Both the position numbers and the translations under genes were made by a program. Shown here piece by piece: positions 1,482 to 10,368 of a stretch of 64,000 bases of DNA (the stretch's first letter is position 1; each line of letters starts with the position of its first letter). The notes beneath the pieces are model-generated. The model was not told the origin of the DNA. It ran no database searches and saw only the letters and a program-made list of their open reading frames with translations. The stretch comes from a virus. The DNA lies in the IMG/VR virus record IMGVR_UViG_3300009068_000001, positions 1 through 64,000 of that record; one strand, written 5' to 3'.

Positions 1482-1717
1482 GCTAACGACTAGAGGCGGG
1501 AGTTCTTTTGAACGAAAACCTCATTCCGTTAGTTAGTTAAACACCCAATGTTTGGTTGGCCAAGCCCACCTCAAGCATACTTGATAAATTCAAGACCCGA
1601 ATAATTTACATGGCTCACGCAGTTAGTAGTACAAAGTAACTAGTTGTATGCGAGATGAGAAGACAAGGTGCGATGCAATCCAGTCCCTGTACGCAACGGG
1701 GGTAGGCCAACCAAACA
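1482..1717 (+). ncRNA. Candidate structured non-coding RNA or leader
   Basis: Largest intergenic gap seen; perfect 13-bp inverted repeat 1549-1561/1705-1717 enclosing three hairpins; a further hairpin domain at 1484-1539. Confidence 0.35.
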
Positions 1718-1996: not shown

Positions 1997-3406
1997 ATGG
2001 ACATAGCAATGTTCACTGAGTCATACAGTGAGGATCTTGATGGCAAGCGTCGTCAAGTTCTTCTTGTTCCACACGATAATAATATGCGTGTGTACTCTCG
2101 GTTAACGGATGGAACAAAGGGCCCCCACAATAAGTGGGAGGAAACTACTCTAACCGAACTGACAACTGAGATCTTTGACGAAGAGATATTGACACGCAGC
2201 CCTGTTGGTGTATATGTTACACCCGCAGATGAACGTGCAATTACTTCCAAGGGATACTCACCAGTGTTGGGCACCAAGGCATGCGACAAGCATTCCAAGG
2301 CTGACCTACCAGAAGATAAAACACCGGCAGTAGAAGTCATTTGTGGCCTCTACGAAAAAGTAAGTATAGGAGATGACTCATTGGAAACATACGTAACAGA
2401 TAACCGTGCTTCAACTAGCACGACAGTTCCATTGGTAGTTACTGTTCCAACACAAACAAACGAGGACGCTGCACCTGTTCAACAGTCCGCATCTCCATCG
2501 TTTGCTGTGTCATTAGCAACAGTTCCTCCAATTGAACTAGCTGAACGTTACATCCACCGTAAAGTCTATGGAGTTCAAGACTTCAAGACTTTTGATAAGG
2601 CTCGCAAGAACCATATCAATGTTCTTATCTACGGCCCAACAGGTCCAGGTAAGACTACAGCTGTTGAAGCGTGGGCCGCAGAACGTGGTCTTCGCATGGC
2701 AACAGTATCGGGTAACGCATCTATGGAATCTCGCCAATTATTCGGTGGCTTTATTCCTGACGGTGTTGGTGGCTATGGGTGGATTGATGGCCCAGTCACT
2801 GACGTAGTTCGCAACGGTGGTGTTCTATTGCTGGACGAGATGAACTTCATCAGTCCTAAAATCTACACCACTTTATATCCACTAACCGATGGTCGTCGTG
2901 CCATCACGCTATTGGACCACATGGGTGAAACAATTGTGGCTCACAAAGACTTAACAATCTTTGCAACCATGAACCCAGATTACATCGGCACCACACCGCT
3001 CAACTTTGCTATGCGTAACCGCTTTGACATTCAACTGTCATGGGATTACGATGACAACGTAGAGTCTCAACTGATTACATCTAAATCTTTGCTTCTTCTA
3101 GTAAAGCAATTGCGTGCTGAAGCAGCCAAGGGTCAGTATGAAACACCTATCTCAACTAACATGCTCATGGAAATCGAAGACTTCATCAAGGATGAAGATC
3201 TCGGCTATGTGTTTGCAGTTGAAAACTTCATTGCTCACTTCTCAGCAGACGAGCAAGCATCAGTGCGTTTGGTATTCCAGACACACGAATACAACATCAA
3301 GACTGACTTTGGTATCGAAATACCAGTTGAGTTAGAGAAGGAAGCAGATGTTGATATCGATACTCAGCTAGCACAGTGGGTATCAGCACAGTCCACCACA
3401 GTCTAA
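1997..3406 (+). CDS. MoxR/CbbQ/CobS-like AAA+ ATPase with N-terminal extension
   Basis: Walker A GPTGPGKT, Walker B LLLDEMN, sensor ATMNP, Arg finger RNRF. Confidence 0.9.
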   Translation: MDIAMFTESYSEDLDGKRRQVLLVPHDNNMRVYSRLTDGTKGPHNKWEETTLTELTTEIFDEEILTRSPVGVYVTPADERAITSKGYSPVLGTKACDKHSKADLPEDKTPAVEVICGLYEKVSIGDDSLETYVTDNRASTSTTVPLVVTVPTQTNEDAAPVQQSASPSFAVSLATVPPIELAERYIHRKVYGVQDFKTFDKARKNHINVLIYGPTGPGKTTAVEAWAAERGLRMATVSGNASMESRQLFGGFIPDGVGGYGWIDGPVTDVVRNGGVLLLDEMNFISPKIYTTLYPLTDGRRAITLLDHMGETIVAHKDLTIFATMNPDYIGTTPLNFAMRNRFDIQLSWDYDDNVESQLITSKSLLLLVKQLRAEAAKGQYETPISTNMLMEIEDFIKDEDLGYVFAVENFIAHFSADEQASVRLVFQTHEYNIKTDFGIEIPVELEKEADVDIDTQLAQWVSAQSTTV

Positions 3407-3415
3407 GGAGGTTAT

Positions 3416-5269
3416 ATGTTTCAAGAAGACCTAAATGAACAGTGGTATATGAAAGAGAAAGATGAGGAAACACAGCTACGTGCTGTAAGACTCAATGCTC
3501 TCTGTCGTGTGTACGAACAAGCTGACCGTGTTCTCTCTGGAGACCCGGTCATTATTAATGTAGTAGAGGATGGTCCAGCACCTGCGTGGTCTGACGGTCA
3601 ATCTATTACCTTTAATGCTAGTGAGATTGAGGAGATGGATCTTGAGACACTAACTCAAGTCAATGGCCTGAACTATCACGAGCTTGCTCATCATTTGTAC
3701 ACACCTCGTAAAGGTACTACGTTCATCAAGTGGGTTATGGAGAATGACTATCTTGAGTCTGCAAACATGTTGGAAGACCAACGTATCGAGACTTTGTTAG
3801 TTGCTCGCTATCCATCCATTGCACCGTATCTAACAGCCACAGTTGCTAGGTGGTTGTCAAGCACACCCGAAGAGGCTATAGGTAACTATATGCTAGTGCG
3901 TGGTCGTAGATACTTACCAATTGAAATCAGACAAGCATTCAGAGATATGTTTGCTAAGCCTGAACTCGTGCCAGTCATTGCAGATATTGTAGATCAATAT
4001 CGTGTGCTGGCATTCCCACGTGACTATGCCAAAGGTCAAGAGCTAATCAAACGTTGGAACGATGAGGTACTAGGAAAGCTAGACTTCCCTAAGATGCCTC
4101 AAGGTCCTAACGGATGTAGCTCACGTGATCCTGTAGGTAAAGGTCGTCCCGAACCTGGTAAGGCACAGGAGAGAGATGCACAACGTGCTACCGGTATGGG
4201 TAACGCTGAGTCTACAAGTATGCAGGCTAAGCCTAATCCAACTACCAACACAAACAAACCACCGCAACCACGCACAGCTGAAGAAGCTCTAGCAATTAGA
4301 GAGCAAGCACAGCAATCAGAACAAGGACAAGAACCTGGTGGATTACAACCTGGTACAGGTCATGTAGAAAGCGTAGGTGGAATACCTAACAACGTACAAG
4401 AACTGCTTGAGGATACCATCCAATCAGTGTTAGAACGTAAAGACGTTCAACAGGATGTTAAGACGAAGCAAAAAGTAATTGTAGGTGGCGATGGTAAGCA
4501 CGATGATGTAGTCAAGAAAGGCAAGTTCGATATAACTACCGTACCTGCTGAATCTATGGTGCTTTATCGTAAGTTTGCACGTGAACTACAACGTTTGCGT
4601 GATGACTGTGAACCTGCGTGGCATCGTGAAGAAGCCAGCGGTAAACTCAATGTTCAACGTGCAATTAGAGGCTGTGAGATTGATCAAGCCTTTGATCGTT
4701 GGGATGAGGGTAACGATGGTGCTGATGTAGAAGCCGTAATCATGGTGGATAGGTCAGGATCTATGTCTGGGGGACGAAATGATATGCATGCATCAATTGC
4801 ATGTTGGACTATCAAACGTGCTCTAGAACAAATCGGTGCACCGGTTACGGTGTACGCATTCGATGATAAGGCTGAGCTAGCTTATGGTCGTAATGAAATG
4901 GCAAGTAGAACACAATACAAGTTCATATATGGCAATGGTGGAACTAATCCATACTCCACATTGCTTGCTGCCGAACAGCTACTCATGTCTTCTCGTAAGA
5001 AAAACAAGATGCTGTTCATGATTACCGATGGTGCGTTTGATGAACATAAGAATGATGAAATCATTCAACGCATATCAAAGCGTGGCATCTTAACAGTCAT
5101 GACTTTAATCATGAGTGATAGAGACATGGAATACTACGAAGATCGTGGTATGGAAGAGAAAACTTGGCGACATGGTACTGAAGTCTATGGCCGTATTAAA
5201 ACAGCCAAAGACTTACTACCATTTGCTAAGTCTGTAGTAACCGGCGCCATCAAAAAACGTGGGCGCTAA
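3416..5269 (+). CDS. HExxH metallopeptidase-like plus VWA (MIDAS) protein, partner of the MoxR ATPase (CobT-like)
   Basis: HELAHH motif, LED.RIE; MIDAS DRSGSM, GGT, ITDG; GGAGG SD. Confidence 0.88.
   Translation: MFQEDLNEQWYMKEKDEETQLRAVRLNALCRVYEQADRVLSGDPVIINVVEDGPAPAWSDGQSITFNASEIEEMDLETLTQVNGLNYHELAHHLYTPRKGTTFIKWVMENDYLESANMLEDQRIETLLVARYPSIAPYLTATVARWLSSTPEEAIGNYMLVRGRRYLPIEIRQAFRDMFAKPELVPVIADIVDQYRVLAFPRDYAKGQELIKRWNDEVLGKLDFPKMPQGPNGCSSRDPVGKGRPEPGKAQERDAQRATGMGNAESTSMQAKPNPTTNTNKPPQPRTAEEALAIREQAQQSEQGQEPGGLQPGTGHVESVGGIPNNVQELLEDTIQSVLERKDVQQDVKTKQKVIVGGDGKHDDVVKKGKFDITTVPAESMVLYRKFARELQRLRDDCEPAWHREEASGKLNVQRAIRGCEIDQAFDRWDEGNDGADVEAVIMVDRSGSMSGGRNDMHASIACWTIKRALEQIGAPVTVYAFDDKAELAYGRNEMASRTQYKFIYGNGGTNPYSTLLAAEQLLMSSRKKNKMLFMITDGAFDEHKNDEIIQRISKRGILTVMTLIMSDRDMEYYEDRGMEEKTWRHGTEVYGRIKTAKDLLPFAKSVVTGAIKKRGR
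4245..4256 (+). repeat. Dispersed 12-mer CCAACACAAACA, copy 2 (intragenic, in a low-complexity linker)
   Basis: Exact match inside the VWA gene. Confidence 0.75.
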
Positions 5270-8124: not shown

Positions 8125-8159
8125 AAAAGGCCCCTCGCTCTTAATTGAGCGGGGGGCCT
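8125..8159. terminator. Terminator hairpin at a strand convergence
   Basis: AGGCCCCTCGCTC-ttaatt-GAGCGGGGGGCCT, with an A tract at 8125-8128. Confidence 0.75.
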
Positions 8160-8161
8160 AA

Positions 8162-8173
8162 TGTTTGTGTTGG
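8162..8173 (-). repeat. Dispersed 12-mer CCAACACAAACA, copy 5 (minus strand)
   Basis: TGTTTGTGTTGG on +, 6 nt downstream of the minus-strand stop at 8180-8182. Confidence 0.8.
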
Positions 8174-8334: not shown

Positions 8335-10368
8335 TTAGGCGTTGTTATCTCGTATTAGCTTCACTTCACAAGCGTCTGTGGTGCAATAGGCTTCACCTAC
8401 GGCATCAAACGCCATACCCTCATACACCCCTGCCAAATCAATTGGAAACAGTGTCATTCGGGATTCTTCGTATTCCTCAGCAGTACTCTGTGTGTACGGC
8501 ATTTGGGGATAAAGCGTATCATCCATGGCAAGGAATGACACAGTCTTTAATTGACCATCGTACATGTGTAGTACGGTGCCAATAGCTTCGGCTTCTTTCT
8601 TTGGATCAAAGGACACAGTTACAGATACAGAGTTATCTGACCAGTAACGTTGAGCAGTAGCAGCAAGTGCCATCTTCTCATAGATAGATACATCCTTTTC
8701 AGAACGCATTGCCTCTGATTTAATTGGGAAGTACACAACCGAGGTATTATCTGGGTCAGTACTTGATGGTTCGATGCGATAATTAGCCAACTTAAATAGT
8801 GGCAGCATAGGGTCATTGTTTGCAAATCTAATAGTTCGTAGGAAGTACTTGCCTCCTGGAGTCCAGTGTACTCCTGGTGATTCACCGGCAAGAATAGATA
8901 CAGTTCCAGATGGCTTTACAGTTGTCATCTTGATCGACTCACGGATACCTAACCATTCAGAGTAACTCTTGTCATAGTTAGTTACTACCGCATAGCCTTC
9001 ATCCATCCATGTGCGAAGAAGAGGGAGACCCTTTGTATCAGCAAAATTTGCGATACCGGAGATAGACGTACCAATGCGACGGTTGCGTTGCATGATAGCG
9101 TTGGTCTCCTCCCAGTGAGTTGGAATCAAAGTTACCGTTTTAGCATAGAGGTATGCAAATTTTAGGGTGCGTTTGAAATCATCTAGGTTGTCATGACGAT
9201 TGATGTATGTTTCAACCAAAGTACAGCATTCCATTGACTCCAAGGACTGTTCAGCGCAAGGGTTGTACCCAGCCGCTCTCCAGTCTTTGTTATTCTCAGG
9301 GTCAGATAGACGACCGTACTTACGGGTTACATCCATCCAGATAACTCCAGGTTCACCGTTGCGGGCAATACCCTCAATGATGGGAGTTAGGTCCTGACCT
9401 ACTGATACCTCAACAGAGTTGTTGGACATCCAGCCCCAACCAGGTGCGTCCGGATCATATGAGTTACGTTCTGGGAATGCTTCCGAATTCTTTAAGTTCA
9501 GAAAGTCTTTATCATCAATACGACCAATTAGTAGCTCAGCTGAGCGGCGAACGTTTCCGGAGACAACGCATACGCCAATCAAGTTTCCTAGATCTGCAAT
9601 ATCACGGCGAGTGAGTTTGTCACCTGCACGATTCCCAAAGATCTTAGTTATATGGCCGTGAAGTTTGATTAACGGTTCTGCTCCGGCTGCGGTTCCACCA
9701 AAGGTTTTAATCGGAGTGCCGGCTGGTCTAATTTGCGAGTAGTCGAATATAGGGCACTTCGTATCTGGTTTAAGGTAGCTATTGATGAGGGCGGCTGTTG
9801 ATTCAACCCAGCCTTCTCGGGTGTCGGGGATGACATATTCTTCTCCTTCTTGACAAGGGTAAATAGTAAAATCTTTGTCTGCCCCCTTATCATCAAAGCC
9901 AACTCCAACTCCCAGCATAGATGCCTCCATTAGGAAGGCAAACGGTTTAGCCGGATCAATCTTAGTCATAGCATTTGTAGATACGAAAGAGCAGTTCTGC
10001 AACGCTGCAGAGTTCTTTTGAACATTAACTAGTGGGGTGCCCATCATCCAAAGACCGCGTCCTGGTGGAGTCCACTTCAGGTTGAATAGTCGGTCGAAGC
10101 CCTCTTTGGCTGAAGTTGCGGCTTTTATATCTGACCAAGGTAGCCTTTGACTTTTAGCATGGTCTTTTTGTAGTGAGTACATGCCATTGATAACACGCTC
10201 ACATACATCTACCCAAGTCTCTTTGGTACCGTCCTCTTTAAGACGAGAGTATGTACGGAGGAAGGTAATCTCTCCTACTGAGTTACCGGCAGCATCTTGA
10301 TATCCCCATGGAACCTTCTTTGAGCGGTAAGCACTGACGAATTCTTCTGCTAGTTTAAACGAAAACAT
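8335..10368 (-). CDS. nrdJ: Class II (adenosylcobalamin-dependent) ribonucleoside-triphosphate reductase, monomeric RTPR type
   Basis: PPGRGLW, LQNC, NVRRSAE, YNPCAEQ, TVKPSGTVS, C-terminal CTTDAC. Confidence 0.93.
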   Translation of the reverse strand: MFSFKLAEEFVSAYRSKKVPWGYQDAAGNSVGEITFLRTYSRLKEDGTKETWVDVCERVINGMYSLQKDHAKSQRLPWSDIKAATSAKEGFDRLFNLKWTPPGRGLWMMGTPLVNVQKNSAALQNCSFVSTNAMTKIDPAKPFAFLMEASMLGVGVGFDDKGADKDFTIYPCQEGEEYVIPDTREGWVESTAALINSYLKPDTKCPIFDYSQIRPAGTPIKTFGGTAAGAEPLIKLHGHITKIFGNRAGDKLTRRDIADLGNLIGVCVVSGNVRRSAELLIGRIDDKDFLNLKNSEAFPERNSYDPDAPGWGWMSNNSVEVSVGQDLTPIIEGIARNGEPGVIWMDVTRKYGRLSDPENNKDWRAAGYNPCAEQSLESMECCTLVETYINRHDNLDDFKRTLKFAYLYAKTVTLIPTHWEETNAIMQRNRRIGTSISGIANFADTKGLPLLRTWMDEGYAVVTNYDKSYSEWLGIRESIKMTTVKPSGTVSILAGESPGVHWTPGGKYFLRTIRFANNDPMLPLFKLANYRIEPSSTDPDNTSVVYFPIKSEAMRSEKDVSIYEKMALAATAQRYWSDNSVSVTVSFDPKKEAEAIGTVLHMYDGQLKTVSFLAMDDTLYPQMPYTQSTAEEYEESRMTLFPIDLAGVYEGMAFDAVGEAYCTTDACEVKLIRDNNA

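Follow-up and report, generated by a model that had tools for sequence, protein, structure and literature searches.

In the early polycistronic message of phage T7, RNase III hairpins (R0.3, R0.5, R1.1, and others) are found one per junction, each as a self-contained hairpin that lies behind a stop codon, ahead of the following ribosome-binding site, and spans about two helix turns with an internal loop. A second group of such structures consists of ribosomal-protein leaders (L10, S15, and L20) and phage operators (T4 gp32 and RegA). They are irregular hairpins with conserved internal loops placed immediately upstream of a ribosome-binding site, and their stems covary and their loops are conserved. 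A third system, 6S RNA (RF00013 and related models), is an extended hairpin of 150–200 nt with a closing stem, internal loops, a large single-stranded central bubble, and a terminal stem. In addition, IMG/VR was mined for phage RNAs in a 2023 survey, which arrived at 8,495 predicted candidates (PMC10690425). That study shares its data source and approach with ours and also reports phage motifs directly upstream of specific genes; its main text makes no mention of CobS, CobT, cobaltochelatase, or a rod motif.

The element described here, from IMG/VR record IMGVR_UViG_3300009068_000001, has something in common with each of these systems. Sequence comparison indicates that its core (positions 1549–1717) is a single extended hairpin, hereafter the rod, with about 49 bp and conserved internal loops, and is not multi-branched. 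The RNA measures about 170 nt in this phage and 146–176 nt among homologues. Like the T7 sites, the rod is a self-contained intergenic hairpin, set in an early-type message between the stop codon of one gene and the ribosome-binding site of the next, and its base consists of about two helix turns, P1 (13–15 bp) and P2 (5–6 bp), split by a small asymmetric AA/A loop. Unlike the T7 hairpins, which recur at several junctions, it is present in one copy per genome; it is also about three times longer and carries many sequence-conserved loops beyond the base. With the ribosomal-protein leaders and phage operators it shares the position, the irregular shape, the covarying stems, and the conserved loops, but it holds no Shine-Dalgarno sequence within the structure and bears no resemblance to E. 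coli 23S rRNA. Indeed, as a mimic of the 23S rRNA GTPase centre it was rejected, the local alignment scores against E. coli rrlH being those of shuffled sequences. The size and the extended hairpin recall 6S RNA; however, the rod gives no Rfam hit, is embedded in an operon beside a start codon, and lacks a large central bubble, its centre being broken up by covarying CC/GG and UUU/GAA pairings.

The whole stretch of DNA analysed (64,000 nt; hereafter the window) gave no match to Rfam 15 at gathering thresholds, and positions 1400–1800 gave none at E values up to 10. The rod thus matches no described Rfam 15 family, and as to its kind it is a structured phage leader or non-coding RNA. ARAGORN found 0 tRNA or tmRNA genes in the window. 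Other identities were considered and rejected. A retron msr-msd is contradicted, since the 99.8-kb genome yields no RVT_1 match and the G behind the AA loop that would have to serve as the branch point is not invariant, being A in one homologue (L012). For a Y RNA/Ro60 module, no TROVE signal was found, and the VWA protein at 3416–5269 matches only VWA/CobT, weakly. A tRNA-like 3′ end (GCCAACCA) fails in L015 and L048, where the stem core is CCAGCC.

Genomic setting and neighbouring genes

The record is 99,805 bp long and the window is its first 64 kb. Position 1 is arbitrary, because 123 bases are repeated at both ends of the record. A rightward gene block extends from about 94.7 kb past the junction of the record's two ends as far as 8 kb; among public phage records, none has DNA similarity to the first 8 kb. 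The genes that matter here are as follows.

1185–1481, + strand: 98-aa protein with an invariant C-x2-C...H...C pattern
1737–1973, + strand: 78-aa acidic protein with the N-terminus MCHECDDE
1997–3406, + strand: AAA_5/CobS-like ATPase
3416–5269, + strand: VWA protein, weakly CobT-like
8335–10368, − strand: B12-dependent ribonucleotide reductase NrdJ

The order is thus a small MCHEC(D/G)D gene followed by the CobS-like and CobT-like genes. The gap of 1482–1736 between the first two genes, which the initial annotation had pointed out in an otherwise packed genome, is non-coding: the frame of the upstream gene contains stops there, and neither this frame nor that of ORF 1737 reaches into the gap. 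Read-through of the upstream stop codon was rejected for the same frame being full of stops.

In the upstream protein C25, C28, H53, and C59 are invariant (CGNCG...H...GC) and the middle part is basic. From this pattern it may be a small zinc-binding, nucleic-acid-binding protein. It has no family match, and its structure model (pLDDT 49) is too poor for use. The downstream MCHECDDE protein belongs to no annotated family; about 160 related protein clusters are found in public metagenomes. It is predicted to form three helices behind a disordered CxxC N-terminus (pLDDT 81), and this model has no significant match in the PDB.

Fold of the rod and the folded strand

The initial annotation placed a perfect 13-bp stem at 1549–1561/1705–1717 as the closing stem of a multi-branch domain. 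The stem is present exactly so, and it is the sole long-range inverted repeat (seed of at least 11, within 300 nt) in the 64-kb window; the five other inverted repeats are short-loop hairpins or palindromes. The branches, by contrast, did not survive. Comparative folding pairs the 5′ half with the 3′ half as one rod, and RNAalifold on 11 type-A members likewise gives one rod and no multi-branch domain. Among the proposed inner stems, TCAAG/CTTGA (1571–1584) is paired in only 52–64% of cells. TCCCTGT/ACGGGGG has no real covariation and breaks exactly at changes in the G-run, which are compensated in the competing P2 (1564–1570 with 1698–1703). The apical helix near 1619–1647 was borne out, since it covaries within the close (type A) relatives. 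Two further local hairpins were tried and given up: GAU-GCA-AUC (1673–1680) loses to the long-range P3 helix, and GGUUGGCU/AGCCAACC beside the 5′ arm is lost when the arm changes. The parts of the element are as follows.

1481–1534, + strand: optional upstream module (U-domain), a three-tier hairpin
1549–1561, + strand: P1, 5′ arm of the closing stem, a perfect 13 bp with 1705–1717
1562–1563, + strand: internal loop IL1, AA on the 5′ side and A1704 on the 3′ side, invariant in 23 sequences
1564–1570, + strand: P2, 5′ strand GCC(C)ACC with bulged A1568, pairing with 1698–1703
1575–1591, + strand: P3 (RNAalifold, type A), 5′ strands GCA (1575–1577), ACU (1579–1581), GAU (1583–1585), and UC (1590–1591)
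1592–1613, + strand: 5′ side of the central region (AAGACCCGAAUAAUUUACAUGG), small internal loops and short helices
1614–1654, + strand: P4, apical stem-loop, with compensatory changes at all 8 apical pairs
1655–1697, + strand: 3′ strands of the central region and P3, with conserved GUGCG, AGUCCCUG, and GCA words
1698–1703, + strand: P2, 3′ strand GGGGGU, pairing with 1564–1570
1705–1717, + strand: P1, 3′ arm, pairing with 1549–1561
1718–1739, + strand: spacer with the Shine-Dalgarno sequence AGAGGAAGG (1721–1729) and the start codon of the MCHECDDE ORF (1737–1973)

The base of the rod was tested on a plain, unfitted MAFFT alignment of 23 members. Across P1 and P2, 96.7% of cells are paired, 14 of the 20 pairs are changed on both sides, and 62 cells are compensatory. 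None of 500 shuffles matched this, and controls in which the pairing was slid gave 20–50%. The interior pairs of type A are paired in 95.8% of cells with 23 compensatory cells (slid controls, 28–43%). For the whole rod in 27 members, 93.9% of 1,239 cells are paired against 26–40% in slid controls, and compensatory changes occur at 42 of the 49 pairs, in 216 cells. This last alignment was fitted to the model and is biased toward it, and the model was derived from the same sequences as those counted; the unfitted tests agree with it.

P1 is 12–15 bp long in nearly all homologues, the exception being L054 with 9 bp and a mismatch, and it shows compensatory changes at 12 of 14 pairs in the 27 sequences. 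Its core is invariant in the first 23 members and is rewritten with compensation in L072 and L073, from GGTTGGCT/AGCCAACC to GGCTAACT/AGTTAGTC. P2 follows the pattern 5′-GCC(N)-A-CC with 5′-GG-(N)-GGU. C-to-U changes on its 5′ strand are matched one-for-one by G-to-A changes on its 3′ strand, so that three pairs covary perfectly (C-G to U-A, in 3, 5, and 2 sequences respectively); the first pair is kept as G-U in 23 of the 27 members. The 3′ partners of the P3 strands are UGU (1688–1690), AGU (1682–1684), AUC (1678–1680), and GA (1672–1673). This region contains a conserved CAUACU, which pairs with AGU-CCC-UG. GAU/AUC, where five pair combinations occur, and UC/GA covary strongly, and the helix covaries in type B too. 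In the central region, CC (1597–1598) pairs with GG (1667–1668) and UUU (1605–1607) with GAA (1659–1661), and the conserved words are YWAGAC in the 5′ strand and GUGCGG in the 3′ strand. P4 consists of CUC (1614–1616) with GAG (1652–1654), CGCA (1618–1621) with 1645–1650, and UUAGU (1623–1627) with ACUAG (1639–1643). Type A has the loop sequence AGUACNAAGUAA (1628–1638), for which types B and C have AGUGUAA.

The stems are thus variable, and the loops and bulges of the basal two thirds are conserved: the AA/A loop, the bulged A in P2, the C after P2, CAUACU, YWAGAC, GUGCGG, AGUCCCUG, and GCA. In most members the basal loop (1562–1566 with 1701–1705) reads 5′-CUAAG/5′-UAAG, which we take to resemble one strand arrangement of the 11-nt GAAA-tetraloop receptor (CCUAAG/UAUGG). 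The U-A pair in this loop is replaced by C-G in 6 members, and this speaks for ordinary Watson-Crick pairing.

The separate upstream domain around GTTC/GAAC, which had also been proposed from the sequence, proved to be real. Its outer stem (1481–1488/1527–1534) and middle stem (GAGG 1493–1496/CCTC 1519–1522) covary, with compensatory change at most (about 6) of the 7 outer-stem pairs and at 3 of 3 middle-stem pairs in the 9 homologues; the inner stem is GTTC 1502–1505/GAAC 1510–1513, flanked by conserved CGGGAG and GAAAAC on either side. This U-domain is absent from L004, L005, L012, L014, L015, L036, and L048, and apparently from L006, where no fold is predicted for a gap of 24 nt. In its absence, the distance from the upstream stop codon to P1 is 3–24 nt (3–10 nt in seven). 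In the divergent L054 (2283–2310), L055, L058, and L059, a simple hairpin TTTGRTA...TAYCAAA followed by ATAG takes its place.

The initial annotation had proposed a structured + strand RNA outside the Rfam families, with G-U pairs as the guide to the strand, and both points are supported. The helices hold 62 G-U against 16 A-C pairs, and several G-U pairs are conserved at fixed places, where the opposite strand has mismatches. Because G-U outnumber A-C and conserved G-U would mismatch on the other strand, the folded strand is judged to be the + strand, that of the genes, with which single-stranded DNA of the same polarity is formally compatible. Energy alone says little, since the single-sequence fold scores better against shuffles on the − strand (z −4.38) than on the + strand (z −2.56); the minimum free energies are alike for both strands and do not favour the + strand.

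Homologues, linkage, and exchange of the interior

Homologues were sought through the neighbouring proteins and through DNA patterns made from the conserved stem, in viral and metagenome contigs. At least 27 distinct copies were found, all in uncultured freshwater phage contigs; the metagenome contig scan gave at least 5 loci. No copy was found with two patterns in 185,579 prokaryote species genomes (one genome per species). A covariance model built from the 11 closest (type-A) members detects a single copy per genome, in the 99.8-kb record and in five full-length relatives alike.

All 27 copies lie directly upstream of a homologue of the MCHEC protein, and the distance from the end of P1 to the AUG is 17–25 nt (median 19, 23 members measured). 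The downstream gene is the same in all members. The upstream gene is that of the CCHC protein in most; in L054, L055, L058, and L059 it encodes an unrelated protein of about 165 aa. At one locus (L088, 1453–1722), the small protein is represented by a distant homologue without the MCHEC N-terminus; there is no rod RNA there, and a strong terminator-like hairpin precedes the gene in its place.

A promoter and terminator scan of 1000–2200 gave no hit within or beside the element, the nearest ones (1855–1902 and 2036–2057) being inside the downstream genes. Contigs from three metatranscriptome studies bridge the upstream ORF to the element and the element to ORF 1737, which hints weakly at co-transcription, as carry-over of DNA is possible and transcript ends are invisible in such contigs. 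In one RNA library, the contig with the element has the highest depth, 14.4 against 2.4–7.3, a weak signal, and in some runs parts of the stretch have no cover, from which nothing follows. The Shine-Dalgarno sequence is not sequestered by any conserved alternative pairing.

The interior of the rod falls into discrete types. That of type A is 82–86% identical between phages whose flanks are only 61–72% identical. Conversely, L012 and L014 have flanks that are 98.8% identical and interiors that match no better than chance. On comparison of L012:3596–3741 with L014:3575–3742, identity stops at GGTTGG in the 5′ arm and resumes at the CCAACC core in the 3′ arm. Because identity breaks at the P1 core, the interior is judged to be swapped as a cassette by recombination within the element's own closing stem. 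This exchange could be ordinary phage mosaicism on a conserved anchor, or it could reflect selection for diversity.

Possible modes of action

Our preferred reading, held tentatively at a little less than even odds, is that the rod is a leader acting in cis, probably recognised by a protein, through which the downstream genes are controlled at the level of processing, stability, or translation. The + strand RNA would be transcribed within a rightward, early-type polycistronic message, and the rod would serve in cis as a 5′ leader for the MCHEC(D/G)D gene and the CobS-like and CobT-like genes behind it. With its base about 19 nt before the start codon, it would stand at the edge of the ribosome-binding site, where a protein that recognises the conserved loops, encoded by the phage or supplied by the host (RNase III, for example), could set cutting, protection, or translation of the message at this junction. 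The long outer P1, free in sequence, may clamp the core in its folded state even when ribosomes terminate 3–10 nt upstream in forms that lack the U-domain, a role suggested by the size of the ribosome footprint. We favour a cis leader because the placement at the edge of the ribosome-binding site is fixed, because the downstream gene is constant and the upstream gene variable, because there is a single copy with no independent transcription signals, and because conservation is concentrated in the loops. However, several observations go against it. The Shine-Dalgarno sequence is free, which leaves no simple on/off switch in evidence; 49 bp with conserved loops make a structure more complex than the known RNase III sites and the majority of operators; and the minimum free energy gives the + strand no advantage over the − strand. 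Tight gene spacing would be seen with any insertion in a compact phage genome, and the cassette-wise exchange of the interior is at least as easily reconciled with an RNA that acts in trans or in a conflict.

A stable trans-acting non-coding RNA is appreciably less probable than the cis leader. Processing of the stalk, for example by RNase III, would release a rod of about 150–170 nt that sequesters a host or phage protein, as 6S RNA binds RNA polymerase and Y RNA binds Ro60, or that acts as a decoy for host defence, and the interior would hold exchangeable specificity cassettes. This reading explains the cassette behaviour better than the cis leader does, both the type-A interiors that are closer than their flanks and the L012/L014 replacement with breakpoints at the P1 core. 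The 6S-like shape and size, the conserved loops, which suggest protein contacts, and, weakly, the depth of the element's contig in one RNA library also fit. On the other hand, neither 6S nor Y RNA nor any further Rfam model is matched at an E value as lax as 10, the short central helices covary where 6S RNA has its bubble, and the neighbouring weakly CobT-like VWA protein carries no TROVE/Ro60 signal. The element also has no promoter or terminator of its own, and the RNA-library contigs continue from it into the downstream ORF. A little less probable again is a trans-acting protein sponge or decoy in conflict between phage and host or between phages, in which the basal loops would dock a conserved partner and the interior types would be swapped by recombination within the closing stem.

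Two further readings are improbable, to about the same degree. One is a riboswitch-like leader that tunes the CobS/CobT-like genes, for which the ligand could be cobalamin or a related metabolite. The phage does carry the B12-dependent reductase NrdJ (8335–10368), the gene set that the rod immediately precedes encodes CobS-like and CobT-like proteins, the internal loops of the rod contain invariant nucleotides, and P2 and the TCCCTG/CGGGGG hairpin compete for one G-run. But no cobalamin or other riboswitch model was matched, there is no junction-type aptamer, and a closing stem of 13–15 perfect pairs (about −20 kcal/mol) is far too stable for switching. The ribosome-binding site is free and no terminator follows the rod, so that an expression platform with mutually exclusive pairing of either is not seen. 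The other is a DNA-level element, an imperfect palindrome of 170 bp that would fold in single-stranded DNA as a recombination or priming site (compare integron attC and single-strand initiation signals), the RNA fold being incidental. The whole element does form an imperfect inverted repeat, its two strands are matched in folding energy, and the cassette breakpoints lie in the conserved stem core. Against this, the strand asymmetry of wobble pairs with fixed, conserved G-U fits RNA best, with + strand single-stranded DNA as a formal alternative. The element is in a single copy, co-oriented with the genes and tightly fitted between stop codon and ribosome-binding site; no integrase or replication-initiator family was found among the neighbours scanned, and the stem core, as read from the sequence, does not fit the attC core GTTRRRY.

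The last reading concerns a repeated 12-mer, CCAACACAAACA. It occurs exactly at 98208, 99491, 1148, 2447, 4245, 5270, and 6904 on the + strand and at 8162 on the − strand, and nowhere else in the genome. These eight sites are 1.0–1.8 kb apart, and seven are on the sense strand of one rightward block of about 11 kb. The − strand site lies at the 3′ end of the converging leftward operon, where, in 8125–8165 (−), it has the last small gene on one side and, on the other, a GC-rich hairpin carrying a T-run (GGCCCC...GGGGCCTTTTG). The 12-mer keeps its position in all relatives, its sequence being exact or with one substitution at some sites, and it is kept within two ORFs in different frames (PTQT in the ATPase gene and TNTN in the VWA gene). 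The initial annotation noticed that the 3′ arm of P1 resembles this word and supposed that the 5′ arm, once released, could base-pair in trans to the copies of CCAACACAAACA found where genes adjoin. The likeness is present in this phage and is not conserved among the relatives; it may be a relic of a 12-mer that formerly stood at this junction.

The supposed pairing fared worse. In this phage and 9 others of the 23 members, the 5′ arm could form 11 bp with one bulge with the 12-mer, at a predicted −12 kcal/mol, but in the other 13 members the match is lost and the duplex falls to −4 to −8. Within P1, its own partner holds the same arm at −19 to −25 kcal/mol. The 12-mer differs at some sites by no more than a single base; the P1 arms, in contrast, change freely and with compensation, 19 different arm pairs occurring among the homologues. 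In L072 and L073, where the P1 core has become GGCTAACT/AGTTAGTC, no complementarity to the 12-mer is left and the 12-mer is unchanged or one base off. A circuit of small RNA and target sites that depends on complementarity would have kept it across relatives, so this reading is contradicted by the comparison and is the least probable of all.

Freshwater actinobacterial phages are abundant and uncultured, and the control of their genes is almost unexplored. The rod is a large RNA with unusually strong comparative support, and it is tied to one gene set, that of a small Cys protein and the CobS-like/CobT-like ATPase and VWA proteins. The comparison does away with an attractive but mistaken connection of this RNA to the region's conserved 12-base word, and it provides a clean natural example of RNA cassette exchange between near-identical genomes. 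If the rod should be a sponge or decoy, it would represent an RNA specificity cassette system not described before. In the control of freshwater phage genes, the rod RNA gives a concrete handle toward an RNA-binding regulator or a processing step.
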